Shown: positions 6,319 to 60,142, numbered from the stretch's first letter. The stretch is 64,000 bases of DNA from Candidatus Latescibacterota bacterium (GCA_965116885.1 OZ220741.1:1792001-1856000), one strand, 5' to 3'. Made by a program: numbers and translations. The notes: a model not told the origin generated them from the sequence alone.

Positions 6319-6341
6319 GAGATTCCCTTTTATTTCAGTTA

Positions 6342-7679: not shown

Positions 7680-7700
7680 GTTTCCTCCTAACACATCTAA

Positions 7701-10747: not shown

Positions 10748-11269
10748 CTATTTCCATAAATTCATTACGGCACCATTTATTCCAAAGACGGGATCGGAAG
10801 CGGGCATTGGTACTTTGGGTATATTTTTCAGTGCGTGTTCGTGTTCACGGGCACTTTCTCGACACAGGTCCGAGTGCTGTCCATCGGGATACGCGCCTAC
10901 GACCAGTAAGTCTGAACTCGCGCCCAGGTTTTTGTGTCCCACGCCCGCGGGAATTACCATGACATCGCCAGGCCCGATTGTCAAGCGCACGCCCTGTTCT
11001 CCACCCATGCATACTCTGGCACTTCCCTGCGCTATGCCCAGTACTTCGTGCGCTGTGGCGTGGTAGTGGTGAAAGGGATAAATGCCATTGCGCCACGAAC
11101 GCGACCAGCGATTGGCGGCAAATACCTGCTCAAATGCCCGTGCAGGGTCGTTTTCGGGCAATGAAAGGGCGTCTTGATAGACGATGAGAGGGAACACGCT
11201 GTTTGGAACCACACCATCGTCTCGAAAATAGTGCGGTGTTATTTGCACATCTTCTTGAACGAATTCCAT
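10748..11269 (-). CDS. Cupin-domain protein (YjlB-like)
   Basis: WRNGIYPFHHYH..AHEVL, GDVMVIPAGVGH, VVGAYP. Confidence 0.85.
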   Translation of the reverse strand: MEFVQEDVQITPHYFRDDGVVPNSVFPLIVYQDALSLPENDPARAFEQVFAANRWSRSWRNGIYPFHHYHATAHEVLGIAQGSARVCMGGEQGVRLTIGPGDVMVIPAGVGHKNLGASSDLLVVGAYPDGQHSDLCRESAREHEHALKNIPKVPMPASDPVFGINGAVMNLWK

Positions 11270-11299
11270 AACTATCCTTTCGCATGGATTCAGGGGATT

Positions 11300-12082
11300 T
11301 TAAGTTATTGTCCTCATTACCTCAATGCACTCAGCTACCTGTTTCTCTGGAGATGGGGCGTTATTTTCTTCTTCCAGTACCAACCAGCCCGTGAATCCTT
11401 GTAGCGCGTTTTGCAGTGCTGATAGATCTAATATCCCTGTGCCCAATTGTGGTCGGGCTGCATTGCCTTTGGCGTCTTCTGAATGGTCTGCGAGGTGGAT
11501 GATGTGTAGTCTGTCTGAGAGTTCTCTGACCAATGCGATTGCGTCTTTGCCCGCCCGTATGTGGTGTCCGGTGTCAAAGGCGAATCCGACGTATGACGGA
11601 TCGGTATATGCCGCCAGTTTGACCAGTCCCTCTTGTTCAGATTCCCACCAGTGGTTGTGATAGGCGAGTTGAACGCCTTTGGGCGCGCAGTGTTCACCCA
11701 GGAGGTTCAGGCCTTCTGCGGTTTTTTCCCACATTTCGTCTGGCACGGATCCCTGTGTTGGTCGCCGTCCGCTGCAAACGATGTACTGTCCGCCAACAGC
11801 GGATACAAAGTCGGCGATTTGACTTCCCTCAGTTCTGATTTGTTTGCGCGAGGATTCATCCCAGTGTGCAGCACCGTAATGCGCGCCGATCAGTTCGAGA
11901 TTGGTTTCGGATAGGATGCGTTTGAATGCTTCGGGGTCTTGAAAATAGCGCTCCAGATTTTTCCAATTTGCTTCCAGGCCCCTGAAACACAGATTTCCGA
12001 TCTGGCGAACAACTGCGAGGAAGTCCGCTTCGTTGGGGTATATTCCTTTGCCAAATGATCTCGCCTGACATCCGAGTTTCAT
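11300..12082 (-). CDS. Sugar phosphate isomerase/epimerase (IolE-like TIM barrel)
   Basis: LAYHNH..E, FDTGH, HLAD, WLVLEEE. Confidence 0.85.
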   Translation of the reverse strand: MKLGCQARSFGKGIYPNEADFLAVVRQIGNLCFRGLEANWKNLERYFQDPEAFKRILSETNLELIGAHYGAAHWDESSRKQIRTEGSQIADFVSAVGGQYIVCSGRRPTQGSVPDEMWEKTAEGLNLLGEHCAPKGVQLAYHNHWWESEQEGLVKLAAYTDPSYVGFAFDTGHHIRAGKDAIALVRELSDRLHIIHLADHSEDAKGNAARPQLGTGILDLSALQNALQGFTGWLVLEEENNAPSPEKQVAECIEVMRTIT

Positions 12083-12108
12083 TTTGTTTTCCTTCGGTAA
12101 AAAAAGCG

Positions 12109-12181
12109 CGAATAGACGAATAGACGAATGGCAACACTGATTCTGGGAGGATGGGCGGGGTTCGTAGATTCGCTGATTCGT
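12109..12181. repeat. Octamer tandem repeat (CGAATAGA)n with inverted degenerate copies
   Basis: cgaatagacgaatagacgaatgg at 12109-12131; ttcgtagattcgctgattcgt at 12161-12181 is a reverse-oriented degenerate version. Confidence 0.65.
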
Positions 12182-13182
12182 TAAAGCTCGACTGTGATGG
12201 CTTTTCCTTCGCGGGAAGAGAAGTACGCGCCTTCACTTACCGCTACTTGTGCGAGTCCATCTCGCAGGCTCGCTCCGGGTGACACGTCTGTTCGCCCTTC
12301 TTTCACGCATTGCGCGAAGTGCGTCCACATGTCGGTCGGCGGCTGTCCCAAGCCCGTCCATTCTCCTTTTTTCAGGTCAATCGGTGTTTTGTCTTCTTCA
12401 AATCCGCGATGTGTCACGTATCGGATTCTATTGCGTTCTGTTGCCGAAATATTTCCCCTCAAGCCCGCCATCTGATAGATGTTCTGCATCTGGATGCCCG
12501 CCATGCTGCCGGTCATACACACGATTTGTCCGTTTTCGCACCGGGTTGTGATGTTGACAAATTCTACGGCGTCTTTGTCGGGTTTGAACAGGCCGCAACG
12601 CTCGTGTCCCATGACTTCCACGGGCAAAGAGCCTGTCCACCACAAAGCGAGGTCCATGGTGTGTGAGAGCGCGTCGAGGATGCCGCTGTAGTGTTCGGGG
12701 AAGAAATACTGCGGGTTAAAAAATCCGCGCTGAAGTGTTACATTGGTTTGTATCAGGTCAATCCTTGAGGCGAGTGCTTTCATTTCCTGGGCAAAAGCCG
12801 TGAAGCGAGATTGATAGCCCACCATTGCTACGACGTTATTTTTTTCTGCTATTTCACAAATTTCTACGCCCGATTCAATGCTGTCGCAGTATGGCTTTTC
12901 GACCAGGAATGGTTTGCCTGCCGCGGCGGCATCGCGCATGACGCCTGCGTGGTGTCGCGTGTGTGTCGCAATTGCCAGGGCGTCGATGTCGTCCCGCGCG
13001 ATGACTTCCCGATGGTCGAGTTCGTATTTTACGTTGAAATTTTCAGCCGCGTTTTTGGCGCGTTCTTCATCCAGGTCGCACACGAGTGCGAGTTCGGCTT
13101 CATCGCATCCCAATAGCTCGCGTGCATGCGACGGGCCGCGCTGTCCTGTGCCAATGACCGCTACGCGAATTTTGTTTGACAT
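12181..13182 (-). CDS. Gfo/Idh/MocA family oxidoreductase
   Basis: IRVAVIGTG, GKPFLVEKP, MVGYQSRF, H..DL motifs. Confidence 0.9.
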   Translation of the reverse strand: MSNKIRVAVIGTGQRGPSHARELLGCDEAELALVCDLDEERAKNAAENFNVKYELDHREVIARDDIDALAIATHTRHHAGVMRDAAAAGKPFLVEKPYCDSIESGVEICEIAEKNNVVAMVGYQSRFTAFAQEMKALASRIDLIQTNVTLQRGFFNPQYFFPEHYSGILDALSHTMDLALWWTGSLPVEVMGHERCGLFKPDKDAVEFVNITTRCENGQIVCMTGSMAGIQMQNIYQMAGLRGNISATERNRIRYVTHRGFEEDKTPIDLKKGEWTGLGQPPTDMWTHFAQCVKEGRTDVSPGASLRDGLAQVAVSEGAYFSSREGKAITVEL

Positions 13183-13197
13183 AATACGCTCCTTTGA

Positions 13198-13233
13198 ACG
13201 AATAGACGAATAGACGAATAGACGAATAGACGA
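13198..13233. repeat. Octamer tandem repeat (ACGAATAG)x4
   Basis: acgaatagacgaatagacgaatagacgaatagacga. Confidence 0.8.
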
Positions 13234-13253
13234 TAGCAGTTTATCTACACAAT

Positions 13254-13280
13254 GTAGGGGCGGTGCCCCTGTGCCCGCCC
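13254..13280 (+). repeat. GTAG-type REP palindrome
   Basis: Identical 27-mer to 10692-10718. Confidence 0.8.
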
Positions 13281-13445
13281 ATTGGGTGGTTGGGCAGGGT
13301 TCTCAAAGTTAAAAAGAAAAATAACTACCAATTTCTCAATCCGTCAACAAAAATAGCCCGTTCTGTCTTGACAAGTGCTCAAAGGTGTCAGTACTTTTGG
13401 TTTAACAGGTATTGAGACACCCATGAAGTGGATACGGAGGATTCA

Positions 13446-14591
13446 ATGAGCGATATAGGTGGAAAAATAGGTGCTGCACCCATTACGGCTCCGGGCTGGA
13501 CCGGGAAGTCCAGAGAAGGCGTTGCGATTGTCGATTGCGATGTTCACCAAAATTTTCGCCGCCCGGAAGATTTGTTGCCGCATCTTTCCAAATTCTATCA
13601 GGAGCATCTCTACGATCAGGGTTTGCATTTGCCCGGCGGTGGATATCCCAATATGCCTTTCCGCGCCAACAGACCGGATTTGAAAGATCCGGATCTCAAG
13701 GAGCGGGATTTCAATTTTTCCGTTGAGTTTTTGCAGAAGGAGCATCTCGACCGCTGGCATATCGATTACGCGCTGTTGACGGGTCCACCGCCTTTTTACG
13801 GGTATTCGGGTTTGCCGGATCCGGATTGGGCGGCTGCGCTGTGTCGCGCGTTCAACGATTGGACGATTGAGCACTGGCTCAGTCGCGATGACCGTCTCGT
13901 CAATGCGATTCTCGTTTCGCCTACCGATCCGTCTCAGGCGGTCGATGAAATTAACAGGCTGGCGCATCGCAAAGATACGGTTGCGGTGATGGTGCCGATG
14001 GGTACGATGATGCCTTTTGGCAATCGCTTTTACCATCCGATATGGGAGGCGTGTGAGAATCACGGGTTGCCAGTGGTTTCTCATGTGGGTGGCGGTGGGG
14101 GAGCGACGCGGACTGTTCCGACTCCGGTGGGTTTTCCCACGTATTATATGGAGTCCAGGATGAGCCGTCCGTATATGGCGAGTTCCCATGCGGCGTCGTT
14201 GATTTGTGAAGGTATTTTTGAGAAGTTTCCAAATTTGAAGTTTGCGCTTATTGAAGCACAGCAGTTTTGGGCTGTTCCGCTGATGTGGCACATGGATTCG
14301 GACTGGAAGGCGTTGCGCGACCAGACGCCGTGGCTCAGGCGTTTGCCGAGCGAGTATTTCCGCGACCATATTCGGGTTGGCTCACAGCCCTTGCACGAGC
14401 CTGAGCGCCCCGAGCAAATACACCAGATGCTGGATATGTTACACGCCGATGAGACGCTTATTTATTGTTCGGATTTTCCCCATTTTGACTGGAATGATCC
14501 CGTGACGACATTTCCCAGGCTGGCAGAGGATTTGCATCAGCGTATTTTTGCCGATAATGCCCTGGAGATGCTGCGTATGGAGGTTGTGTAA
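13446..14591 (+). CDS. Amidohydrolase-2 family protein
   Basis: DCDVH, RAFNDW, YHPIWEAC, FEKFPNLK, SDFPHFD; start could be 13428 or 13446. Confidence 0.85.
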   Translation: MSDIGGKIGAAPITAPGWTGKSREGVAIVDCDVHQNFRRPEDLLPHLSKFYQEHLYDQGLHLPGGGYPNMPFRANRPDLKDPDLKERDFNFSVEFLQKEHLDRWHIDYALLTGPPPFYGYSGLPDPDWAAALCRAFNDWTIEHWLSRDDRLVNAILVSPTDPSQAVDEINRLAHRKDTVAVMVPMGTMMPFGNRFYHPIWEACENHGLPVVSHVGGGGGATRTVPTPVGFPTYYMESRMSRPYMASSHAASLICEGIFEKFPNLKFALIEAQQFWAVPLMWHMDSDWKALRDQTPWLRRLPSEYFRDHIRVGSQPLHEPERPEQIHQMLDMLHADETLIYCSDFPHFDWNDPVTTFPRLAEDLHQRIFADNALEMLRMEVV

Positions 14592-16971: not shown

Positions 16972-17000
16972 AAGTGTGAAATAAAAAAGATGATACAGAT

Positions 17001-17026
17001 GTAGGGGCGACCCCCTGTGGTCGCCC
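17001..17026 (+). repeat. GTAG-type REP palindrome
   Basis: GTAGGGGCGACCCCCTGTGGTCGCCC, identical to the copy at 38970. Confidence 0.85.
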
Positions 17027-17057
17027 GCGCACAGGACTATTGGGAGAGGAGAATAAA

Positions 17058-38212: not shown

Positions 38213-38280
38213 GGGACAGCACAGAGGCCGTCCCCTACGATGATAGTGTGGTTTGTAGGGGCGACCCCCTGCGGTCGCCC
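38213..38280. repeat. Divergent pair of GTAG-type REPs
   Basis: Reverse REP 38213-38238 (GTAGGGGACGGCCTCTGTGCTGTCCC) and forward REP 38255-38280. Confidence 0.75.
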
Positions 38281-38344
38281 GCTGAATGCCTTTAATCTTG
38301 ACGGTCTCTGGCAAAATGGGTAAATTCATTCTCGAACGAGTTGT

Positions 38345-38421
38345 CGGAGCGTAGCGCAGCTCGGTAGCGCACCATCTTGGGGTGATGGGGGTCGCTGGTT
38401 CAAATCCAGTCGCTCCGACCA
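38345..38421 (+). tRNA. tRNA-Pro(GGG)
   Basis: Acceptor CGGAGCG/CGCTCCG, anticodon arm ccatc-TTGGGGT-gatgg, T-loop GGTTCAAATCC, encoded CCA; TTGACG..TAAATT promoter upstream. Confidence 0.95.
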
Positions 38422-38430
38422 TAATAATAC

Positions 38431-38465
38431 AGGGGTTATGCTTTTATTGCATAACCCCTTGTTTT
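38431..38465 (+). terminator. tRNA terminator hairpin
   Basis: aggggttatgc-tttta-tgcataacccct followed by a T-rich tract. Confidence 0.8.
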
Positions 38466-38777
38466 GTGACTGTTAGACAGAAAGTCCTTCAGGATGCTCA
38501 GAACATGCGGTCTTTGCTGACTGATTACCAACCTATTCACGAACCTGCGCCTGTTCTGGAGGAGGAACGCGAGAGAAGACCCAGGCGGGTGAAGCTGGAG
38601 AATCGCGCGTTAAAGATAACCCATTCATTCATCCCAAAGCCGTGTGGGACGCGCTACAATGGCTGGCGACCACGTATTATGGGGCTCGTATGGGGAAAAA
38701 CAGTCTAACAAGTCCCGATATGTCCATTCGGAAAGCGTGTAAGTGGTGGTATAAGGGGGCACCAGAGTGATATAACA

Positions 38778-38966: not shown

Positions 38967-38969
38967 AAT

Positions 38970-38995
38970 GTAGGGGCGACCCCCTGTGGTCGCCC
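38970..38995 (+). repeat. GTAG-type REP palindrome
   Basis: Identical to 17001-17026. Confidence 0.85.
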
Positions 38996-39025
38996 GTTCG
39001 CAAGAAGTATGAAGTGTGATTTCCC

Positions 39026-39196
39026 ATACTCGTCATCGCGCCATTTCTCAAGCCTTACTGGCATCGCTACGCGCATTAGCGACGATGTGCGACAACTGCG
39101 TTCGCTCAGGGCAGGTACGTACATTGAAGGTTTGAGTAGTATCGCTCTGCTGCTCGTTGGTCTGGGTATCATGGTTACTATTCATCCGGGACTGGC
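39026..39196 (+). pseudogene. Remnant of the ABC exporter gene found intact at 46881
   Basis: 39026-39062 matches ~46890-46926; 39063-39196 matches ~47223-47356 (IATRISDDVRQLRSL..GTYIEGLSSIALLLVGLGIMVTIHPGLA). Confidence 0.9.
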
Positions 39197-39228: not shown

Positions 39229-39567
39229 ATGTTTTTTCGTCTGTTTAAAGCAAAATGCCCAAACTGTGGAGTTCGAGGGCCTTGGGATGACGTTGTGTGG
39301 GAAGGAAGTGGATGGAAATTGTTTTATCCCATCTGGCCTTGTAAAGCGTGTGGCATCATGCTTAAAAATGATCTTGGAAGGCTAATTTTAACAATACCAA
39401 TATATGTAGCTCTGTTATTGTTTTTAGAAATCTGGGTTGAGGATTGGGGCCTTCTTGTCTATTGCCTATCTCTAATTATTATCAGCTTTATTTATGGGAG
39501 ATTACAACGTCTTAAAGTTGTGCAGTCTTCAATCGAAAACACTGACCCTGAGAAAGGTACTTCTTAA
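39229..39567 (+). CDS. CxxC-x24-CxxC zinc-ribbon + 2 TM protein (cxxc_20_cxxc-like)
   Basis: CPNC..CKAC followed by two hydrophobic helices. Confidence 0.75.
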   Translation: MFFRLFKAKCPNCGVRGPWDDVVWEGSGWKLFYPIWPCKACGIMLKNDLGRLILTIPIYVALLLFLEIWVEDWGLLVYCLSLIIISFIYGRLQRLKVVQSSIENTDPEKGTS

Positions 39568-39580
39568 CATAGAGCAAGCG

Positions 39581-39925
39581 ATGGGATTTAATATGTTTAA
39601 AGCAAAGTGTCCAAACTGTGGATGTAAAAACGATTGGGGAGGATCATTTAAATGGTTTAATCCCCCTCGCACTTGGCCCTGTAAGAAATGTGGCAGCATA
39701 CTTGAAATGGACCGTAGAAGAGGGGTTGTGTTGCTACTCATATATGCGGTTTTCTGGTTATTTTTTGAACTCTGGATCAGAGATTGGAGCCTTCTTGTTT
39801 ATTGTCTCCTACCAGTTGGCATTTTTATCATTCTTTCATTGAAGCGCGTTAAAATTGTACAATCTCCAGACCAAACTTCTGACGCTGATAGTCAAAAAGC
39901 ACCTCTTAATAAGGAAAGGGAGTAA
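39581..39925 (+). CDS. CxxC-x20-CxxC zinc-ribbon + 2 TM protein
   Basis: FKAKCPNCG..CKKC; paralog of 39229 (shared DW.LLVYCL); start 39581 or 39593. Confidence 0.75.
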   Translation: MGFNMFKAKCPNCGCKNDWGGSFKWFNPPRTWPCKKCGSILEMDRRRGVVLLLIYAVFWLFFELWIRDWSLLVYCLLPVGIFIILSLKRVKIVQSPDQTSDADSQKAPLNKERE

Positions 39926-40008
39926 CTGAGAGGTCACTACACGGTGCTTTGTCCATGGTGAATGGAAAACATTCATCGATTTTAATCTTTACAGTATTGG
40001 AGGATCAA

Positions 40009-40470
40009 ATGCAAAAACTGGTCAAAAAAACGCTGCATTACGAGACCATTATGCCCGTTGAGGCTTATCATCCTGAAGATGATACCTGGGAGGATGAAAT
40101 TAACCTTGCTCTTACTATCGGAAGTTGCGTCTGGGCGATTGCCTCACCTGATCCTTTTGGAGAGGTTGCTTGCGCTGGATTCGTCCTGAATACCCTCGCA
40201 CATGATGAACCTACTGTCGAATTTGTGACAGATGTAATGGAGGCCAATATCGAGGCTGATAGGCAAAGGATGGAACAGCAGGCGGATATGGCTGAAGCAG
40301 TCATAGATACTGCCCGAACTATTGTTATTTTAAAACTCTGGCCTGTATTAAACAATCCGCCTGCTGGTTCATCTCTCTCTGCTCGTGTTGAATCAGGTAA
40401 GGATGTTGTGTCAGCAGACAAGGATACTACAAACAGGCTTGCTCAACAGACGAGTCAGGACTGCGATTAA
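40009..40470 (+). CDS. Hypothetical 153-aa protein, candidate peptide precursor/toxin
   Basis: RBS GGAGG; N-terminal TIMPVEAYHPEDDTWE resembles the 44271 precursor; hydrophobic segment with two Cys. Confidence 0.6.
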   Translation: MQKLVKKTLHYETIMPVEAYHPEDDTWEDEINLALTIGSCVWAIASPDPFGEVACAGFVLNTLAHDEPTVEFVTDVMEANIEADRQRMEQQADMAEAVIDTARTIVILKLWPVLNNPPAGSSLSARVESGKDVVSADKDTTNRLAQQTSQDCD

Positions 40471-40526
40471 AACAATTTTGTAGAGGATGTAGGAAATTCT
40501 CCGATCCAGGATGAAGGACCCAAAAT

Positions 40527-40835
40527 ATGCCAAGAATCATTAAAAGCATTTACACCTGCCCCAAATGTGGACATTCCGTTGGATGGCGTCGCAAATTATT
40601 TACCGGTATATTGGCTCAATGGTCCTGTAAAAATTGCGGTACGGCCCTGGAATTTAGCATCAATAGATACCCAATATTGCTTCCTGTGGTTATTATATCA
40701 ATCAATTTATGGATTACGCCTCATGTAGTTTTTTGGGTCTCTGCGGTAATAAACGGTTTAGGGATATTTTTTGTATGTTTTATAAGTCTGGTAGTTATAG
40801 AGAAGTATGAACCACAGAGGCCTGACGCAAAGTGA
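40527..40835 (+). CDS. CxxC-x19-CxxC zinc-ribbon + 2 TM protein
   Basis: YTCPKCGH..CKNC, two TM helices, C-terminal QRPDAK. Confidence 0.75.
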   Translation: MPRIIKSIYTCPKCGHSVGWRRKLFTGILAQWSCKNCGTALEFSINRYPILLPVVIISINLWITPHVVFWVSAVINGLGIFFVCFISLVVIEKYEPQRPDAK

Positions 40836-40854
40836 GAGATTGGAATTACCATAT

Positions 40855-41175
40855 ATGTCAATAAATATAAAAAATCTTTATACCTGTCCGAAATGTGGGC
40901 ATCCTGTTGGGTGGTGGCGCAAGTTGCGTGCTGGTACTATCAAATATCCCTGCAAAAATTGTGGCACGATTTGGAGCGTTGATTACTGGAGACGCGGTAT
41001 TTTGATCCTCATATTTCTCTTGTTACTCTACTCATTACTCTACTTATGGATTAACATTGAAATAACTCTATTGCATTTTCTTTTAGGGGGCTATGTTTTG
41101 TTAGATATTTTAGGAAAAATGTTTATCAGTCCGATTGTGGAGAAAGGCGCGAGTCAGCGACCGGATGCAAAGTGA
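40855..41175 (+). CDS. CxxC-x18-CxxC zinc-ribbon + 2 TM protein
   Basis: Paralog of 40527 (YTCPKCGH.VGW.RKL, QRPDAK). Confidence 0.75.
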   Translation: MSINIKNLYTCPKCGHPVGWWRKLRAGTIKYPCKNCGTIWSVDYWRRGILILIFLLLLYSLLYLWINIEITLLHFLLGGYVLLDILGKMFISPIVEKGASQRPDAK

Positions 41176-41193: not shown

Positions 41194-41281
41194 GTGGACA
41201 ACAGTGGGCTAACTATAAAATACAAGTGCAATTTCCATGATCTAAACGGAGAGGGTGTCAAGGTTGCAATTATTGATAGCG
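41194..41281 (+). pseudogene. 5' remnant of an S8 protease gene
   Basis: LNGEGVKVAIIDS versus LTGRNVKVAIIDSG in 50306; unrelated sequence follows. Confidence 0.7.
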
Positions 41282-41410
41282 CATTTGTTTGTTCATCCCC
41301 GGTTGTGGGATCGGCGGCATCTGTTCACGCTTTGGGAGCACAAGCGTTGTATGCTGAACAGGCTTGCTTATCTGGAGGAGCAAGGGTATTTGCGTCCGTC
41401 AGACCAGTTT

Positions 41411-41492
41411 CATCCTTGAGGTGATGGAGGTCGCTGGTTCCTCCGACCATAATAATACAGGGGTTATGCATTTATTGCATAACCCCTTTTTT
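41411..41492 (+). repeat. att-like direct repeat: degenerate tRNA-Pro 3' half + terminator
   Basis: ggtgatggaggtcgctggttc[11-nt deletion]ctccgaccataataatacaggggttatgc...gcataacccc. Confidence 0.9.
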
Positions 41493-41532
41493 TAATTCCC
41501 CCATGATCCTTCTGCCTCATTCTAATCTCTAC

Positions 41533-41661: not shown

Positions 41662-41975
41662 TTACCTGAAGGCACGAATGTGCTTGAGGCCCCGCCGTTT
41701 TACTCATGGAAGCGTGGGTCTGACTACAGATAGGCGACTTTTTTCAAAATATTCTCAAAAAAGTAGAAGTATGAGGAAAAATGAGCAATACGGGGAATAT
41801 TTTTGAATTGCGATTCAGGAAGCCGTGGTGGTATAATTAAAAAGCCGCCGACAAGACCTGGAAAGTCACCTGTCAGCGGCGGGTTAAGTATCTCAAGCGG
41901 ACAACTTGAGAATATCCAAAAATAACGATCCAAATCTCAATTGTCAACCATTGAGATTTGGGTCTCGCTGGTGCT

Positions 41976-42659
41976 ATGGACAAGCAGAAAATTCTGATTA
42001 TAGGTCATGCAACCTATACTATGTCGGCATTTGTAAGCTTCCTGATTGATGGCCCCCATGAAGTATTTACTGCGGCAGATGGGCGAGAAGGGCTTGAAAT
42101 TTTAAGAAGCGAGCAGATAGACCTTGCCATAGCCGAGATGTATATAGAGGACGTTGATGGGGTACACTTTGTGAAGCGCGTACGGGCAGAGAAAGTTCAG
42201 ACAGATATCTTGCTCAGAGCGAGGTCTGGATCTCAGGATTTGGACCTACTCGAGACAAGCGTAAGTGTGTTCCCCATTATGAGAGATAAATTTTTGGTGA
42301 AGATCAAAACGTCTATGCCTTCGCAATATCCGTGGAAAACAGAGTTGGAATCATTTCTGAATGAGAAATACTGCAATCCAGAGCTAAAATTTGACGATCT
42401 TATGGACCATTTCCTGTTCTGTAGATCCTATGGTTGCAAACTGTTTAAAAAACATCTTGGCAAGACCTTCTCGGAAATATTGAGAGAGACGAGAGTTGCA
42501 AAGGCACAACAATATTTGATAGAAGAACCGTCATTGCTGATCTATGAAATATCAGACAAATGTGGGTTTCGTGAACAAAAGCGTTTGTATGAGGCTTTTA
42601 TTAAAGTACAGGGCATTTCGCCTACTGAGTACCGAAGAAGAAATGTAAATCAGGGCTGA
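41976..42659 (+). CDS. Atypical response regulator: receiver + AraC HTH
   Basis: MDKQKILII, DLAIAEM (Glu at the phospho-Asp site); FKKHLGKTF, EISDKCGF, GISPTEYR. Confidence 0.85.
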   Translation: MDKQKILIIGHATYTMSAFVSFLIDGPHEVFTAADGREGLEILRSEQIDLAIAEMYIEDVDGVHFVKRVRAEKVQTDILLRARSGSQDLDLLETSVSVFPIMRDKFLVKIKTSMPSQYPWKTELESFLNEKYCNPELKFDDLMDHFLFCRSYGCKLFKKHLGKTFSEILRETRVAKAQQYLIEEPSLLIYEISDKCGFREQKRLYEAFIKVQGISPTEYRRRNVNQG

Positions 42660-44270: not shown

Positions 44271-44525
44271 ATGGACCTGAAAAAAGTAGCTATAATCAAA
44301 CCGGCTCGCGGCAATTATGATGCCGGGACGATCTATACCTATCATTCCGAGACTTGGGAATGTGTTACTGGTGTATTAGGAGATGCGTTATTGGGCAGTG
44401 GCGTTGGTGCAGGCGTAGCCATAGCCGGTAGAGCCGCTTCTCTAATATCGGGCCCTGTAGGTTGGGGAATATTCGCAGTCACAGTTGTTGGCGGAGCCCT
44501 AAACGGCTACGCAGATCATTGCTAA
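44271..44525 (+). CDS. Putative bacteriocin/RiPP precursor (84 aa, Gly/Ala-rich, Cys31 and terminal Cys84)
   Basis: Purine-rich RBS; polar leader then GxxxG-rich hydrophobic core; immediately upstream of the transport/maturation operon. Confidence 0.75.
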   Translation: MDLKKVAIIKPARGNYDAGTIYTYHSETWECVTGVLGDALLGSGVGAGVAIAGRAASLISGPVGWGIFAVTVVGGALNGYADHC

Positions 44526-46880: not shown

Positions 46881-48605
46881 ATGACAATGATACTTCGTCT
46901 TATACCTTTTCTCAAGCCTTACTGGCTACGCGCTGTTGAAGCCAGTGTGTGCATGGCCTTCACGACTGTTCTGGCATTGCCCATGCCGTTGCTTTCTGTC
47001 TATATCATCGATCATGTTATCGCAAATGGGCAAATGCAAACCCTGTACATCGTGTGCGGTGCCCTTGCTCTTGCTGTCATGCTCGGCCTGGGTCTTGGAT
47101 TTCTCCAACGCCTGTTGCTGCTTATTTTTACCCGCCGAGTCTTTTTTGACCTGGAAATGCACCTTTTCGATAAGACGCACACACTGCCGATTCATTTTTT
47201 TCAGAAGCACGGGTCGGGGTACATTGCTACGCGCATCAGCGACGATGTGAGACAACTGCGTTCGCTGATGGCAGGGACGTATATCGAAGGCTTGAGTAGT
47301 ATCGCTCTGCTGCTCGTTGGGCTGGGTATTATGGTTACGATTCATCCGGGACTGGCAATTGCTGTGCTCATAATTGCGCCGGGTTTTTTTTGGGTCAATC
47401 TGCATTTTGGTCACAAGGTGCGTGGGTTGAGTGACCAGGTACAGGAAAAAAAGGCTATTACTACTGCCACGCGCCTGGAGTCTCTGGACGCTGCGCCCGT
47501 TGTCCGCGCTTTTGAACGCGGTCGTGGGGAAGCTCGTCGCCTTGCCCGCGATATGCACAGCGAAGTGAACGCAAGGCTAAAACGCGATGTTACGCTTGCC
47601 AGTGCGGGTGTGCTTCAGATGGCACTTTACAGCATGGGAGGGTTATTTCTTCTGTGGTATGGTGCGCACGAAATTATGGTGGGTCGGCTCACGTTGGGTC
47701 AATTTGTCGCGTTCAATACGCTTATGGCTTATGTGTACGGCCCAATGAACCAGCTTTCTGGTCTCTACGTGAATGTTCAAAAAGGTCTCGGCATTCTCAA
47801 GCGCGTCTGTGAGATTATGAATATGTCGCCGGAAAAAGGGCGAAGAATCGAAACGAGTAGCATTGGAACAGGCGAGATCGCGTTTGAAAATGTCTGTTTT
47901 GGTTACGAGCCGCACCAGCCAATCTTAAACAATCTCAATTTTAGTCTGAAATCCGATCGCATCACGGCTATTGTTGGCCCCACAGGTGCGGGTAAAACGA
48001 CGCTCGTAAATCTCTTGCTCCGCTTTTGTGATCCCAACGCAGGTCGCATTTTGATTGATGGGACAGATATTCTTGAGTTTAATCCGCGAATTTTGCGTCG
48101 TGCAATTGGCATGGTTGAACAGGATATTAGAATCATTTCTGGAACAATCCGCGAAAATATCTCGTATGGCAAATTCGGTGCTTCTCAAAGAGAAATTATC
48201 GATGCGGCTAAAGCGATGAACTGTATGGAGTTTATCGAGCGTTTTCCGGATGGTCTGAACACGCGCATCGGTTCAGGCGGTGTGCAGCTTTCCGGGGGTC
48301 AGAAGCAGCGCGTGGCACTTGCACGGGCGATAATTCGAGATCCGAAAATTTTGATCTTAGATGAAGCGACATCTTCACTCGATCCGCGCTCAGAAGGCCT
48401 CGTGCAAGACGCGCTTAAACGCGCGACAAAGGGGCGCACAACACTTTTGATTGCCCACCGGCTCTCCACAGTGTCCATTGCAGATTATATTTATGTGCTC
48501 GCTGATGGACGTGTTGTGGAAGAAGGTCATTTTGACGACCTCATTGAACGGGATGGGCACTTCAAAACTTATTATCAACAAGACAGGATTGCTGCAACGG
48601 CATGA
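46881..48605 (+). CDS. ABC exporter (TMD+NBD) without a C39 peptidase domain
   Basis: GPTGAGKTT, LSGGQKQR, LDEATSSLD, IAHRLST; N-terminal TM domain. Confidence 0.9.
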   Translation: MTMILRLIPFLKPYWLRAVEASVCMAFTTVLALPMPLLSVYIIDHVIANGQMQTLYIVCGALALAVMLGLGLGFLQRLLLLIFTRRVFFDLEMHLFDKTHTLPIHFFQKHGSGYIATRISDDVRQLRSLMAGTYIEGLSSIALLLVGLGIMVTIHPGLAIAVLIIAPGFFWVNLHFGHKVRGLSDQVQEKKAITTATRLESLDAAPVVRAFERGRGEARRLARDMHSEVNARLKRDVTLASAGVLQMALYSMGGLFLLWYGAHEIMVGRLTLGQFVAFNTLMAYVYGPMNQLSGLYVNVQKGLGILKRVCEIMNMSPEKGRRIETSSIGTGEIAFENVCFGYEPHQPILNNLNFSLKSDRITAIVGPTGAGKTTLVNLLLRFCDPNAGRILIDGTDILEFNPRILRRAIGMVEQDIRIISGTIRENISYGKFGASQREIIDAAKAMNCMEFIERFPDGLNTRIGSGGVQLSGGQKQRVALARAIIRDPKILILDEATSSLDPRSEGLVQDALKRATKGRTTLLIAHRLSTVSIADYIYVLADGRVVEEGHFDDLIERDGHFKTYYQQDRIAATA

Positions 48606-49030: not shown

Positions 49031-49585
49031 ATGTTCGTGGTTACTTTAAACCGGCGGAGGATAGCCCTTGCAAGTCTTCTCATTATTGTGACAGGATCGG
49101 CGGGCGGTCTCTTTGCTTTCTACAATTATTTTCTTCCGGATAGCGTTGCAGAAGTTGGTCAGGCTCTGCCCAGTTTAACCTTACAGGATATGGATGGACA
49201 GTCTGTGAGTCTGGATAGCTACCGCGGAAAACTGATTTTAGCCAGCTTTATTGAGGTCAATTGTCATCATTGTCGGGATCAGCTTTCAGTGTTTGAAACG
49301 CTTCACGGCGAGATGCCAGACGAAAATTTGACGCTTCTTGCTATTTCGACCAGTTCGGTCAAAAAAACGGCTGTTTTCTTTCAAGAACATCCCATTTCAT
49401 TTTCCATTTGGATTGACGCAAACCGCAATCTGTACAAGAAACTGGGTGTCTTCAATGTTCCAGCACTGTTTTTTTTAGACGAAACAGGCGTCTTGCGCTA
49501 TAAAGCCGTGGGGTATCAATCAACCGATGCTGTGAGTGGGATTATCGACAGTTTGTTTCTGCGGGAAGAAACATCTGAGGAATAG
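49031..49585 (+). CDS. TlpA/peroxiredoxin-like thioredoxin-fold protein
   Basis: N-terminal TM anchor, SLDSYRGK, CHHC, VPALFFLD..G. Confidence 0.85.
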   Translation: MFVVTLNRRRIALASLLIIVTGSAGGLFAFYNYFLPDSVAEVGQALPSLTLQDMDGQSVSLDSYRGKLILASFIEVNCHHCRDQLSVFETLHGEMPDENLTLLAISTSSVKKTAVFFQEHPISFSIWIDANRNLYKKLGVFNVPALFFLDETGVLRYKAVGYQSTDAVSGIIDSLFLREETSEE

Positions 49586-50305: not shown

Positions 50306-52258
50306 ATGACTTTAGACAAGACAACAAAAATTGCTTTCTCTCAATTGACGGGACGAAATGTTAAGGTTGCCATTATTGATAGTGGTATTGAAGCTGAGCA
50401 TCCCAAAATTGGGCATGTTGCAGGGGGTGTGGGATTTATCGTCAAGTCGGGTGAGCGCGTTATTCAACAACCAGACCACAACGATTGTGCAGGGCACGGT
50501 ACAGCCTGTGCGGGTATTATCCACAAAAAAGCACCTGATGCCGAGCTCTACAGTATTCGCATTTTTGATGAGACCCTTTCAGCAGACGGTCATGCGCTTG
50601 TCACTGCTATTCAATGGGCAACAGAACAGCGCGTAGATGTTATCAATCTCAGCCTGGGTACAACTGACGCTGCGTACAAAGATGGCATTGCGGAAGCCTG
50701 TCAGTGTGCTGTTGAAGCAGGTATCATCCTTATTGCCGCCGAACATAACGACGGCCTACCGAGTTACCCGACGAATTCGCCCGAGGTCATCGGCGTGACC
50801 GGTGGCAAAATCTACGACCGCTACGGTTATTACTATAGACCCGGCAACACGATTGAATGCGTAGCGCGAGGCGATGAACAGCGCGTGTGCTGGAAAGATG
50901 GGCGTGAGATTATGATATCTGGAACCAGCTATGCGGCTCCCCACATTACCGGTATTGTCACCCTGATTCGGGAAGCCTATCCCAACGCGACACTGAAAGA
51001 AGTGCGCGAAATTTTAAAAGCCAATGCTCTGGAAGAAAGAATCGAACGGGTTTCCAACGTTGCTACACACATGACGCCATCTTTTCCCGTTTCCTTTTCA
51101 GAGCAGTCGGGCATTTCAAATTACAATTGGATCAAGAAAGCCGCTCTGTATCCCTACAACAAGGAAATGCATGCATTGGTCCGGTTCCGGGATCTATTGC
51201 ACTTTGAAATTACAGCCGTAGCGGATCCCGTTGGCAAAGGGCTTGTTGGAAAAGATCCGGGTGAAGCAATTGGAACGGAACCTACCGGGTTAAAAGTCGT
51301 GCCGAATTTGCAGAAAGCACTTCGGGGAGCGGATACGCTCATTCTCGGATATGTGGATCAACTCGGCCGCATTAGCAAACGCGACTTGCTGCGGGAATCG
51401 ATCCAGACAGCGTTGGACCAGGGCGTTCACGTCTTTAGCTTTTTGCAAGTTCCTGCAGGCATATACGGTGACCTGTACGCTCAGGCTCGAAAAAAGGGTC
51501 TCCGAATTGTCTATCCATCTATTTCTATGGGTGAAGTGCATAATATTCTTAAAAAGGACCAAAAAGGTACACCCGTCGATGTTCCAGTTCTAGGGGTTAT
51601 GGGTACGAGTTCACAACAGGGCAAGTTCACCTTGCAACTTGCGCTCAGGCGCAAGCTCATTCAAATGGGGTATAAAGTCGGTCAGATCGGCACTGAACAT
51701 CACGCGGAATTATTCGGTATGGATCTCGCGTTTCCGATAGGCTATGCATCACCTCTGGAACTGCCGCTTCAGGTGTACGTTCCTTATCTCGATTACAAAA
51801 TGCGCGAAATTAACCGGAAAAAGCAGCCGGAAATCATTCTCGTTGGCTCCCAGTCTGGCACGATTCCCTATGATGTCAACGAACACAAGACGCACTCTTT
51901 GTCCTCTATTGCATTTATGCTGGGGACAAAACCCGACGCTTGCATTCTTGTCGTCAATAGCATTGATGCAGATGATTATATCCGCGATACGATGGATGGG
52001 ATACGCGCTGTGTGCAAAGCTCCGACTATCTTGCTGGCGATGAGCGATAAGGAAAAACACATTCGAGCAGCTTATGGACGCACGATGATTAATCCACAAC
52101 AGATGTCTCGTGAACAAATAGATGAAAAATTGCAATATCTGGAACAGACATTTAACCTGTCCGCTGTCGAAATTGTCTCTGAAGAAGGCCAACAGAAAAT
52201 GCTGGAGACAGTTCTAAAATTCTTTTCTGCAGACGAAACAGAGACACAAACTGATTAG
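50306..52258 (+). CDS. S8 subtilase fused to a DUF1611/TIGR04066-like peptide maturation domain
   Basis: Triad IIDSG, GHGTACAG, SGTSYAAPH; no signal peptide; C-half LYPYNKE..., GTSSQQGKFTLQL, GYKVGQIGTE, VGSQSG. Confidence 0.85.
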   Translation: MTLDKTTKIAFSQLTGRNVKVAIIDSGIEAEHPKIGHVAGGVGFIVKSGERVIQQPDHNDCAGHGTACAGIIHKKAPDAELYSIRIFDETLSADGHALVTAIQWATEQRVDVINLSLGTTDAAYKDGIAEACQCAVEAGIILIAAEHNDGLPSYPTNSPEVIGVTGGKIYDRYGYYYRPGNTIECVARGDEQRVCWKDGREIMISGTSYAAPHITGIVTLIREAYPNATLKEVREILKANALEERIERVSNVATHMTPSFPVSFSEQSGISNYNWIKKAALYPYNKEMHALVRFRDLLHFEITAVADPVGKGLVGKDPGEAIGTEPTGLKVVPNLQKALRGADTLILGYVDQLGRISKRDLLRESIQTALDQGVHVFSFLQVPAGIYGDLYAQARKKGLRIVYPSISMGEVHNILKKDQKGTPVDVPVLGVMGTSSQQGKFTLQLALRRKLIQMGYKVGQIGTEHHAELFGMDLAFPIGYASPLELPLQVYVPYLDYKMREINRKKQPEIILVGSQSGTIPYDVNEHKTHSLSSIAFMLGTKPDACILVVNSIDADDYIRDTMDGIRAVCKAPTILLAMSDKEKHIRAAYGRTMINPQQMSREQIDEKLQYLEQTFNLSAVEIVSEEGQQKMLETVLKFFSADETETQTD

Positions 52259-52285: not shown

Positions 52286-52561
52286 ATGCTCCCCGAAAGA
52301 ATTGAAGATCGCGTTAAATGTGTCATCGTTAATACGCTTAGTCTGGAGATTGCCCCGGCAGAGATTGGGGATGCGGATGTTTTGTTTGGTGGAGAAATGG
52401 GACTTAATTCAATGGCTATGATTGAGCTTGTCATAGGTTTGGAAGAAGAATTTGGTTTTGAAGTATCCGATGAAGATTTGCGTGCCGAGGTATTTGAAAG
52501 TGTGCAGACCATGGCCGATTATGTTCGGTCTGCACTCGGAAGCGTTTCGACTGCTATTTGA
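52286..52561 (+). CDS. Acyl carrier protein
   Basis: Small and acidic; GLNSMAMIELVIGLEEEFG with the conserved Ser. Confidence 0.85.
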   Translation: MLPERIEDRVKCVIVNTLSLEIAPAEIGDADVLFGGEMGLNSMAMIELVIGLEEEFGFEVSDEDLRAEVFESVQTMADYVRSALGSVSTAI

Positions 52562-53719: not shown

Positions 53720-54754
53720 ATGAAAAAAATACTTCCCATCACTACACCTCCCGTTATCGGCTATCTGCATCATGCCTATCCGCTATCTATCCTCGCCAAC
53801 TGGGAAGTTTATTTGCCGTGGTTCCACAGCAATTACATTCAGCTATACTGTCCTCAAAATCTTCAGGCCCTACAAGGTCAGAGAACTATGAAATTCAATT
53901 TTTATCGCAGGCCCGATCAGCGTGTCTCCTTTTCGCCCTATTTGAAGGTGCAACTTCTGAACAGAGACTTGATTTTCAAATCTCCGCCAGATATCCTGCC
54001 CTTCATTGTTGACTGTATTGATAAAGGCTACTACGTCCAACCCACTGTGGATGAATATTTCTTGCCGGACAGTGCCGCGTATGAGAAAAGACCTCTGGTT
54101 CACGAGACCCTCATCTATGGCTACGATAAACAGACCTTCGTTGGTATAGGTTACAACAAAAATGGCGATTACGCTTCATACCACATCATGTTTTCTGAGT
54201 TGAAACAGGCGGTTGTACTGGCCGACCTGACCGGTCATTACGATCCGGATGGATTGCGATTGTTTAAATATATCCCGCAGGCTGAGTATGATTTTGACAT
54301 ACATCTGGTACGAGAACAATTCACCGACTTGCTCTATTCGCGAAATACATCTCATCGCTTTCGCATGGTTGCCAATCCATCCGATGGTGCGTATGGCCTG
54401 GCGACATATCCTTGTCTAAAAAGCTATATCGAATCCTTTTTATATTCTCCTTTCTCTTTTGACATTCGACCTGCTCATATTCTATGGGAGCACAAAAAAT
54501 GTATGGTTGATAGGCTCAAGTACATGGAAACGCAAGGCTATTTGAAGTCCGAAGATGGGTTCTCTGCTCAGTATGAAGCACTGGCGCGAAAGACCGGTAT
54601 GCTTAGAATGATGTTGCTCAAATTCAAAATCACACGTAGTCCCGATCTAATACGCCGCGTGCTTTCAAATTTGGACGACATCGGAGAAGCAGAACAAAGT
54701 CTTCTTCAAGATTTGGTCAAAAAACTCGAGACAGTTTGTGATGATTCGAGATGA
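53720..54754 (+). CDS. Hypothetical protein, BtrH/papain-like fold suspected
   Basis: CIDKGYYV..VDEYFLP, HETLIYGYD, LWEHKKCM resemble proteins of NRPS/RiPP-associated BtrH-like families. Confidence 0.5.
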   Translation: MKKILPITTPPVIGYLHHAYPLSILANWEVYLPWFHSNYIQLYCPQNLQALQGQRTMKFNFYRRPDQRVSFSPYLKVQLLNRDLIFKSPPDILPFIVDCIDKGYYVQPTVDEYFLPDSAAYEKRPLVHETLIYGYDKQTFVGIGYNKNGDYASYHIMFSELKQAVVLADLTGHYDPDGLRLFKYIPQAEYDFDIHLVREQFTDLLYSRNTSHRFRMVANPSDGAYGLATYPCLKSYIESFLYSPFSFDIRPAHILWEHKKCMVDRLKYMETQGYLKSEDGFSAQYEALARKTGMLRMMLLKFKITRSPDLIRRVLSNLDDIGEAEQSLLQDLVKKLETVCDDSR

Positions 54755-59266: not shown

Positions 59267-59340
59267 GTAGCTGGTTCAAATCCAATCGCTCCGACCATAA
59301 TAAGACAGGGGTTATGTATTTATTGCATAATCCCTTTTTT
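59267..59340 (+). repeat. att-like direct repeat: tRNA-Pro 3' end + terminator
   Basis: gctggttcaaatccaatcgctccgaccataataagacaggggttatg...gcataatccc. Confidence 0.9.
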
Positions 59341-59440
59341 CATGGCTATAATATAGTGGGAAAATATAGTCTGAGGATTGTATTTCATCCATTTTTGAAC
59401 AGCATGAAGGGGATAGGTCTCAAATTCTCCAGGAGGCATT

Positions 59441-60142
59441 ATGGACAAGCAGAAAATTCTGATTGTAGATCATGACCTGCTTGTAATCTCAGAGCTTGCA
59501 GGATTCTTGTGGGATGAACCCTATGAAATATGCCTGGCAGGATATGGGATAGAAGGTCTTGAAATTTTAAGACAAGGGGAGATTGATCTTGCTGTCGTTG
59601 AGCTACATGTAGAGGGTATAGATGGTATAACGCTCTTGAAGCATGTGAAGGAGGAAAAAATTCAGACAGCTATGCTGATCATGACGAGTTTGCGATCTGC
59701 AGAATTGGGCGAACAACTGATCAAGGCTGGCGCTGCAAGTGTATTTGACAAACCAATAGAGAGAGATGTTTTTTTGAAACAGGTCAAAAGATATATGCCT
59801 CCACAAGATATGTGGAAGACCAGGTTTGAAGTGTATTTGGAGGAGTATTACGGCAATTCAGATCTAAAATTTGAAGACGTCATGCGCTATTTCCGATTTT
59901 CTAAGTCGCATGGTTACGCATTGTTCAAAAAACATTTGGGCAAGACCTTTCGTGAAGCATTGAGGGAGGTTAGAATTGAAAAGGCAAAATTATTGATTGA
60001 AGAAACGCCATTGCCAATTTTTGAAATTGCAGCACACTGTGGTTTTCGTTCATCATCGCGTTTAAACGAAGCTTTTAAGAGATTATATGGCATGTCTCCT
60101 CGTGCTTATCGAGAAAAAGAGGACATACGCGTAAGAAATTAG
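59441..60142 (+). CDS. Atypical response regulator: receiver + AraC HTH (paralog of 41976)
   Basis: MDKQKILIVD, DLAVVEL, FKKHLGKTF, EIAAHCGF, GMSPRAYR. Confidence 0.85.
   Translation: MDKQKILIVDHDLLVISELAGFLWDEPYEICLAGYGIEGLEILRQGEIDLAVVELHVEGIDGITLLKHVKEEKIQTAMLIMTSLRSAELGEQLIKAGAASVFDKPIERDVFLKQVKRYMPPQDMWKTRFEVYLEEYYGNSDLKFEDVMRYFRFSKSHGYALFKKHLGKTFREALREVRIEKAKLLIEETPLPIFEIAAHCGFRSSSRLNEAFKRLYGMSPRAYREKEDIRVRN

Follow-up and report, generated by a model that had tools for sequence, protein, structure and literature searches.

What is the small open reading frame (ORF) at positions 40009-40470 (+ strand) of this 64,000-nt window of a Candidatus Latescibacterota genome (GCA_965116885.1, OZ220741.1:1792001-1856000), and does it carry the same processing signal as a second small ORF, at 44271-44525 (+ strand), in the adjoining genomic island? 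The initial annotation had taken both for precursor peptides with a common signal and interchangeable payloads, the first possibly still matured in trans by the second island. Both ORFs are present where they had been placed and begin with the N-termini quoted for them (153 and 84 aa, respectively), and both have a Lys-rich start, a YH pair at residues 20-25, then TWE, and then a hydrophobic stretch containing Cys. The explanation that we favor, and regard as rather probable, is that the 153-aa ORF is what remains, shortened and chimeric, of a leader-bearing precursor of a family here called A, in a decayed island at a tRNA-Pro gene, and that what it has in common with the 84-aa peptide (family B) is a class of leader.

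The chimera is apparent from its homologues, which cover about 69-85% of the 153-aa query at most. Residues 1-106 (40009-40326, + strand), consisting of the leader, a hydrophobic Gly/Ala/Cys stretch and an acidic region, are 49% identical over 110 aa to the family-A homologue in L019 (L012-L022 and L026 denote related loci compared with the window). Residues 107-153 and the stop codon (40327-40470, + strand) form a foreign tail, identical at 42 of 47 positions to the C-terminus of a 310-aa CPBP/Rce1-like protease from L019 (PF02517, E 1.4e-18), whose gene lies directly downstream of the family-A gene; a similar arrangement is found in L015. At the DNA level, 40322-40864 is 92% identical to L019 2032-1490. 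Because the first part aligns to family A and the second to the CPBP C-terminus, the ORF reads as an in-frame fusion near nucleotide 40327, made by deletion. The PF02517 domain occupies residues 138-221 of the 310-aa protein, and the ORF holds only 47 residues downstream of it: the catalytic transmembrane core of a CPBP protease is absent, the ORF has no Pfam match, and the native C-terminal region of family A has been replaced by the CPBP tail. The length of 153 aa, which had been compared with that of the 84-aa peptide as a core length, is therefore not a natural one, the last 47 residues coming from another gene, and this copy of the peptide gene is probably dead. Neither of the two peptides belongs to an unrelated known family by Pfam or NCBIfam, where no match was found for either, and the best Atlas score for residues 1-106, 0.86, offers no lead.

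Family A comprises unnamed leader-bearing peptides of Latescibacterota, delimited by 51 other database relatives of the 153-aa ORF at E <= 0.01 (74 candidates). In the family alignment (A1), 45 of 52 matches were kept and seven were dropped, two that matched the C-terminal tail only (P0023 and P0025) and five with short local leader matches only (P0041, P0046-P0048 and P0052). The 303-aa (L015) and 310-aa (L019) proteins had been considered as large payloads with the same leader; they were rejected as CPBP proteases that match in the tail alone. Across the 45 sequences, residues 1-23 contain 12 invariant and 6 nearly invariant columns, whereas beyond them only G51 reaches 90%. In the window these are codons 40009-40077 (+ strand), ending V-E-A-Y-H-P-E; the ORF carries all 12 invariant residues, and its K7-T8-L9 variant is seen in other members. 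In nine related loci, conservation at the DNA level breaks sharply after codon 23, with indels beyond it, and there are synonymous differences within the leader at codons 2-5, 16, 17, 19 and 23. The Shine-Dalgarno sequence GGAGGA (39999-40004, + strand), 4 nt upstream of the ATG, is kept in all nine. The payload that follows is a marginally hydrophobic Gly/Ala-rich stretch and then a very acidic region; the family has a median length of 133 aa and a few recurrent C-terminal endings. A conserved leader with a variable core is the general hallmark of precursors of RiPPs (peptides made on the ribosome and modified after translation) and leader-dependent bacteriocins, and family A has it, as do families B, H, C and G (the last three introduced below). 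Family-A leaders would then be removed and the cores modified or exported. Of 20 other genomes in the genus, 8 have the family, compared with none of 148 others sampled from the phylum.

The island around the remnant has lost its production genes. A tRNA-Pro(GGG) gene (38345-38421, + strand; ARAGORN) is the attachment point of two tandem islands. Its 3' end and a hairpin make up the reference copy (38391-38480, + strand) of a direct repeat, D1, with further copies at 41419-41508 and 59267-59356 (63% and 84% identity by repeat search; cores 83-94% by blastn). These copies delimit island 1, of about 3 kb, and island 2, of about 18 kb, an arrangement of repeats that marks the tandem integration of two genomic islands at a single tRNA gene. 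In the sister genome L014, the syntenic reference for the DNA map, the intact cassette is a single island between the same repeats. The gene order in nine sister-species loci is an AraC-type response regulator, an HlyD adaptor, a 571-aa ABC exporter, one or two Zn-ribbon proteins, the peptide, sometimes a CPBP protease, two or three more Zn-ribbon proteins, a fusion of S8 protease and DUF1611 domains (S8-DUF1611), an acyl carrier protein (ACP) and a 344-aa BtrH/CtaG-like protein. Relative to L014, the window lacks 4836-9044 (regulator, adaptor, exporter) and 11138-13947 (protease, ACP and most of the 344-aa gene), and contains an additional 135 nt that are 91% identical to the gene for the island-2 exporter. 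The losses of island 1 thus comprise the regulator, the HlyD adaptor, the ABC exporter, the S8-DUF1611 protease, the ACP and the BtrH-like ligase, while all four of its Zn-ribbon genes are still intact. Around the peptide gene, the flanking Zn-ribbon genes are whole and the exporter and protease are present as fragments only. That production genes are gone and four small membrane-protein genes kept is the pattern expected if immunity outlasts a toxin-like product.

Is the resemblance between the two leaders real? The pattern YH.{1,4}TWE matches 2 of the 75,717 stop-to-stop ORFs (>=40 aa) in the whole genome, and these are the two ORFs in question, 4.3 kb apart; within the families, it occurs in only 8 of 45 members of A and 3 of 12 of B. 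The first half of the motif holds at the family level and the second does not: A-Y-x-x-E is found in all 45 family-A sequences and [AT]-Y-x-x-E in all 12 of family B (AY..E in 8), whereas TWE is not conserved, a Trp shortly after the Tyr being common (33/45 and 9/12) and not fixed. The exact form of the string match is partly accidental, and the shared thing is the leader class: the AYH.E common to A and B is the end of a leader type, a signal class rather than a mark of close homology.

The same leader type, Lys-rich and with a conserved block that closes with [VIL]-x-A-Y-x-x-E, recurs beside other S8-DUF1611 genes of this genome, of relatives and of other genera, ahead of unrelated payloads. 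Apart from the decayed cassette, four intact S8-DUF1611 cassettes are present in the genome, island 2 among them, and each includes a small coding-strand ORF with a strong Shine-Dalgarno sequence and a Lys-rich N-terminus (families F, G, H and B), the conserved part of which ends in a small residue, then Tyr, then acidic residues. Family G consists of two paralogues that have one leader and different Cys/Asp-rich cores. Relatives add families C (three tandem B-like peptides, L026), D (L022) and E (L012). Family H (five sequences) is conserved precisely as far as E-A-Y, beyond which a 9-residue insertion is present in one member, and the H leader aligns to the A leader over all 26 columns (hhalign P 1.9e-4, probability 48%). 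When each family in turn was left out of the leader hidden Markov model (HMM), F ranked 14 and H ranked 51 among the 75,717 ORFs. In a comparison meant to be independent of choices made by eye, 20 S8-DUF1611 regions of 19.9 kb from genomes outside the genus (top matches on long contigs) were each compared with a paired control region 500 kb away in the same genome, the region from the family-C training genome being excluded to leave 19 cassette regions; 8 of the 19 had a leader-profile match above the control maximum of 6.7 bits, compared with 0 of 20 controls (Fisher 0.0012; Mann-Whitney 0.012). The matches are small ORFs, all listed ones on the S8-DUF1611 strand, with endings such as IQAYHDE, VSAYGSED, VLAYSEE and VQAYNNE; two genomes have AVEAQ.EY followed by short Cys-rich cores.

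Payloads also appear to change places. A-type proteases, 91-96% identical across species, are found with family A in five loci and with peptide D in L022, at 93-94% identity. L022 encodes an A-type protease and an exporter 60-61% identical to the A-type, with no family-A gene and no Zn-ribbon genes. Because an A-type enzyme is there paired with peptide D, one enzyme type would seem to accept different leaders and payloads. A shared leader type with interchangeable payloads, as the initial annotation had proposed, is thus supported by the comparison of cassettes, in the form of a leader type found near S8-DUF1611 genes; direct homology between A and B is statistically weak.

Several results weigh against this reading. 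A BLASTP comparison of the A-B pair is not significant (E 1.4; 12/30 identities with 6 gap positions), and hhalign aligns A with B over six columns only (EAYHPE/YAYHSE; probability 1.5%, P 0.035). Searched against the 75,717 ORFs, an HMM of the B, C, D and E leaders has no family-A ORF among the 954 matches listed, and an A-leader HMM has no family-B ORF among the 247 listed. By hhalign, H and B give nothing, C against A gives P 0.044 and C against B gives P 0.051, and A, G and B, each left out of the leader HMM in turn, attain modest ranks (482, 1363 and 4427, respectively). Families C-H were chosen by eye in gaps between annotated genes. The eight positive regions outside the genus come from four genera only, many of the 19 are from one genus, and 11 of the 19 have no match to the leader profile. 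Some genera have Gln or Cys in place of the Tyr, which makes a cut after Tyr uncertain. With about 100 residues and a median net charge of -18, the family-A payloads would make an unusual bacteriocin, confidence in the model of the BtrH-like protein is low (pLDDT 62.5), and every step of the mechanism set out below is deduced from gene content.

If the A and B leaders were unrelated, each read only by the enzymes of its own cassette, YH..TWE would be a post hoc coincidence, an explanation that we consider improbable though not negligible. The poor BLASTP and hhalign scores, the failure of either HMM to retrieve the other family among the matches listed and the small share of members with the exact pattern are all as this explanation would have it, and about one match to the pattern is expected in 7.1 million six-frame ORF residues (a rough estimate from typical residue frequencies). 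However, the only two matches in the genome both fall at residues 20-31 of small ORFs preceded by a Shine-Dalgarno sequence, within 4.3 kb and in islands of the same family. Moreover, A-Y-x-x-E lies on invariant columns that close the conserved block in both families, and the same ending is found in independent cassettes (AYHDE in L109, AYDQE in L022 and AYGDDE in family H). Quite a different view of family A would make its members membrane-anchored accessory or regulatory subunits that dock to the Zn-ribbon proteins or the exporter by an N-terminus that is not a cleaved leader. Their length of about 125-140 aa, longer than usual for RiPP precursors, would fit, as would a marginal transmembrane-like segment (median maximum Kyte-Doolittle value over 19 residues 1.67, near residue 37) followed by a long acidic region, and the genes always lie among three to five small membrane-protein genes. 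Nevertheless, hypervariability, including indels, right after 23 conserved residues is the pattern of a leader with a diversifying payload, short Cys-rich or Gly-rich peptides with the same leader style occupy the corresponding position in other cassettes, and L022 has the A-type protease and A-like exporter without family-A or Zn-ribbon genes. Such a role is accordingly given little credence.

Could the remnant still be a working precursor, matured and exported in trans by island 2, as the initial annotation had suggested? It retains an intact leader and Shine-Dalgarno site, five contigs on record encode the very same chimeric protein, and an RNA library has a 216-nt contig that matches 40044-40256 exactly, which is a weak hint of transcription, with DNA carry-over possible. 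Among the resident cassettes, the protease of island 2 is 54-55% identical to the A-type enzymes, compared with 50% for that of cassette R1, 39% for R3 and 36% for R4; since this is the closest resident identity, the island-2 protease is, as judged by sequence, the best resident candidate to cut the orphan leader, and a paralogous enzyme could bind or cut the remnant with its intact leader and ribosome-binding site. However, the natural C-terminal 20-30 residues are replaced by the 47-residue CPBP tail, and 55% identity is no guarantee of the same specificity. The cognate exporter is lost, and the resident ones rank differently from the proteases, with 32% identity to the A-type in island 2 as against 63-64% in R1 (32% in R3 and 47% in R4). 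The remnant most likely yields no normal product, and maturation by island 2 to such a product seems unlikely; that the remnant is a still functional precursor is as hard to credit as the subunit role. A complex prediction for the island-2 S8-DUF1611 protein with residues 1-60 of the ORF (score 0.01, mark 0.32) speaks neither for nor against binding; its alignment (A3) includes one chimeric row, a 735-aa ORF of L018 that seems to combine S8 with an exporter C-terminus.

On the favored explanation, that of a dead family-A chimera with a leader of a shared class, the following course of events may be envisaged. In intact cassettes, a cytoplasmic QhpE-like S8 domain would recognize the Lys-rich leader of about 23 residues and cleave within the V-E-A-Y-x-x-E that forms its conserved end, or immediately beyond it. 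A carrier-borne group may be added by the DUF1611 domain, ACP and ligase, the ABC exporter and its adaptor would export an acidic, membrane-active product, and the small membrane proteins and CPBP would protect the producer. In this genome, one deletion would have removed the regulator, adaptor and exporter; another, the 3' end of the peptide gene and most of the CPBP gene, with the in-frame fusion as the result; and a third, the protease, ACP and ligase.

The remaining features of island 1, all on the + strand, are the following. The 135-nt fragment of an ABC exporter gene (39062-39196) is of the island-2 type, with 91% nucleotide identity to 47222-47356 and 84% amino acid identity to residues 105-160 of the island-2 exporter. 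The first Zn-ribbon gene (39229-39567; from the ORF list) is intact and encodes a protein with two transmembrane segments, a paralogue of the product of the 39494 gene (repeat D3); its homologues adjoin the peptide gene in relatives, and it may be immunity-like. The second (39494-39925; TIGR04104 E 3.3e-5, below cut-off) has homologues 58-84% identical in L012-L020, and its true start is probably at an internal Met near 39590. The third (40527-40835; TIGR04104 E 1.4e-5) and fourth (40807-41175; TIGR04104 E 4.9e-6) are intact, both likewise below cut-off, with homologues up to 90% and 87% identical, respectively. Beyond them, an A-type S8-DUF1611 gene is represented by a relic of about its first 29 codons (41194-41281), whose N-terminal string ..KYKCNFHDLNGEGVKVAIIDS is that of the relatives' A-type enzymes, unlike that of the island-2 enzyme; the DNA match of this region to L013, L014 and L020 stops at 41294. 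A relic of the 3' part of the BtrH/CtaG-like gene (41280-41414) is 92-96% identical at the nucleotide level to L012, L013, L014 and L016. The peptide gene had been described as lying between relics of the same exporter and S8 protease that island 2 encodes, which is true of the exporter fragment, while the S8 fragment comes from the different, A-type paralogue.

Other rearrangements are seen in and around these islands. Response-regulator/AraC-HTH paralogues are encoded at 41958-42659, where the gene opens island 2, and at 59441-60142, after it. The former shares 92% identity with the regulator at the start of L014's intact A cassette, which suggests recombination between islands at the regulator gene. 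A repeat of 28-29 nt, 96-100% identical among its copies at 16999-17027, 38254-38281 and 38968-38996, is also found in L013 and L016; it is a dispersed short repeat, since metagenome contigs pile up on it (summed depth about 100, compared with about 6 nearby). At L018 7360-9567, the 735-aa ORF matches S8-DUF1611 over the first ~342 aa only and then has what looks like the C-terminus of an ABC exporter, and it appears to be a further chimera made by deletion, where two cassettes of a sister genome meet. Runs labeled as sponge metagenomes contain 0.97 of the sampled words (three runs from one study). Contigs leave stretches such as 40352-40579 uncovered in all four runs, which, like the runs with a small share, carry no information.

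Island 2 encodes candidate partners for its own peptide; the genes for the peptide, exporter, S8-DUF1611 protein, ACP and 344-aa protein are on the + strand. The family-B precursor candidate (44271-44525) has 11 homologues, in which residues 1-27 are conserved, with Y24, H25, S26 and E27 invariant, and the hydrophobic core is rich in Gly. The same island has, at 49031-49585, a gene for a TlpA/ResA-like thiol-disulfide oxidoreductase anchored in the membrane, which, together with the invariant Cys31 and Cys84 of the core, suggests an end-to-end disulfide in the mature peptide. The ABC exporter (46881-48605; Pfam ABC_membrane and ABC_tran) has no C39 domain. The 650-aa S8-DUF1611 protein (50306-52258; Pfam S8 and DUF1611_N/C) is the closest paralogue in this genome of the lost A-type enzyme. 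Its best NCBIfam matches are QhpE (NF049966; 158 bits, cut-off 165) and TIGR04066, "peptide maturation system protein" (136 bits, cut-off 200), and the S8 triad of Asp, His and Ser (D25, H64 and S208) is invariant in 11 sequences. As read from the sequence, its N-terminus has no hydrophobic stretch, and the protein is therefore presumably cytoplasmic. An ACP gene follows at 52286-52561 (PP-binding, E 9.4e-9), and then, at 53720-54754, the gene for the 344-aa protein, a candidate BtrH/CtaG-like papain-fold ligase by Foldseek and Atlas, homologues of which come after the ACP in most cassettes. Foldseek matches its model to AziU3/U2, CtaG and CcbD (E 2e-6 to 1e-3, TM about 0.42), and Atlas places it with BtrH_N clusters at 0.97-0.98; there is no Pfam match at E <= 0.01. 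The AF2 (AlphaFold2) model is poor at residues 8-88, and the catalytic residues are unreadable from it. Ser23, His128 and Asp136 are conserved and may form a triad; an invariant N-terminal Cys was not seen in the protein, and the invariant Ser23 may substitute for it.

Besides island 2, three further S8-DUF1611 cassettes lie on contig C1 (1759139-1769081, 1933327-1947281 and 5478364-5488085), each with its own candidate precursor. The one at 1.94 Mb encodes two peptides that combine a common leader with differing Cys/Asp-rich cores, and its protease gene reads as one open 635-aa ORF, although the profile match there was flagged with one in-frame TGA. In another genus, L114 (14766-15104 and 18370-18621) and L115 (3509-3736 and 14302-14520) have pairs of small ORFs that share the leader ..HKPER.TY.QAVEAQ.E. 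and have short cores, rich in Cys and about 20-25 residues long; these ORFs look like textbook RiPP precursor candidates. At E <= 1e-40, 89 of the 168 genomes sampled in the phylum have S8-DUF1611 matches, some of them partial. Matches at profile positions 334-644 were considered as DUF1611-only proteins and rejected, as they lie inside ABC exporter genes and derive from a chimeric alignment row. Among the best 80 loci of a species-wide scan, 5 have the full-length fusion, all of them in Candidatus Latescibacterota, and 75 have the S8 domain alone.

How do these cassettes compare with known systems? In the Qhp system, as described in part of PMC7876137, QhpE removes the 28-residue leader of QhpC, the gamma subunit of quinohemoprotein amine dehydrogenase, in the cytoplasm before ABC export, and an inducible regulator is mentioned. 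The cassettes described here, known from their genes alone, would likewise combine a cytoplasmic subtilisin-like protease, a short N-terminal leader and ABC export, and both response regulators weakly match the NCBIfam model of the AraC-like QhpR. They differ in that the S8 domain falls just under the QhpE cut-off, that radical-SAM QhpD, QhpG and dehydrogenase subunits are absent, and that a DUF1611/TIGR04066-like domain is joined to the protease, with an ACP and a BtrH-like protein encoded next and diverse small ORFs as putative substrates. Double-glycine bacteriocins have short conserved leaders, variable and often Gly-rich hydrophobic payloads and a C39-peptidase ABC exporter with its adaptor, with small immunity-like membrane genes and CPBP proteins nearby. 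The present cassettes are similar in their conserved short leader, variable payloads, dedicated exporter and adaptor, immunity-like genes and nearby CPBP. However, their exporters (567-591 aa) consist of ABC_membrane and ABC_tran only, without a C39 domain, and the leader ends A-Y-x-x-E, with no Gly-Gly at the boundary and a separate, presumably cytoplasmic S8 enzyme.

The CLI_3235/CcpM systems offer another parallel. In Paenibacillus polymyxa, the CLI_3235 precursor and the radical SAM enzyme of the SacP23 cluster are accompanied by TIGR04066, an ACP-like protein of TIGR04069, a subtilisin-like protease and an ABC transporter (portions of PMC10731318, where the TIGR04066-type module is mentioned as annotation only). 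A TIGR04066/DUF1611-like protein, an ACP-like protein, a subtilisin-like protease, an ABC transporter and a small precursor are common to both. The models of that system are TIGR04065 (precursor), TIGR04068 (radical SAM), TIGR04066 and TIGR04069 (ACP-related); TIGR04065 and TIGR04068 have no match among the 26 ORFs of 39229-60139 in NCBIfam, nor was any radical SAM enzyme seen among these ORFs, the C-terminal domain is below the TIGR04066 cut-off, and the ACP matches generic ACP models, not TIGR04069. Here, moreover, one protein combines the protease with the TIGR04066-like domain, there are in addition a BtrH-like ligase and Zn-ribbon membrane proteins, and the phylum is Gram-negative, with an HlyD adaptor. 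CtaG is described, in the abstract of PMC12865890, as a papain-like ligase that makes amide bonds between carrier-bound substrates. The predicted likeness of the 344-aa protein to CtaG, BtrH, CcbD and AziU3 comes from the Foldseek and BtrH_N Atlas matches and from its place after the ACP; by analogy, the acceptor here would differ in being a ribosomal peptide. Full-text literature searches found no functional study of an S8-DUF1611/ACP/ligase module.

What would such a module mean for the Latescibacterota? Tentatively, and with more doubt than confidence, it may be seen as a phylum-wide platform in which a QhpE-type peptidase-DUF1611 protein, an ACP and a CtaG/BtrH ligase would read a Lys-rich leader of 20-27 residues ending [VIL]-x-A-Y-x-x-E and attach a carrier-borne group to products that would range from Cys-rich peptides of about 20 residues to acidic proteins of about 100 residues. 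Since the signal would be generic, orphan precursors, the present remnant included, could be processed by paralogous cassettes of the same cell. The leader class, if true, provides a handle for mining precursors beside S8-DUF1611 genes, which are present in about half of the sampled Latescibacterota genomes: a small ORF preceded by a Shine-Dalgarno sequence, with a Lys-rich start and a conserved block that ends A-Y-x-x-E. The combination of leader peptidase, ACP and CtaG-like ligase points to a possible new modification of ribosomal peptides, by transfer from a carrier protein.

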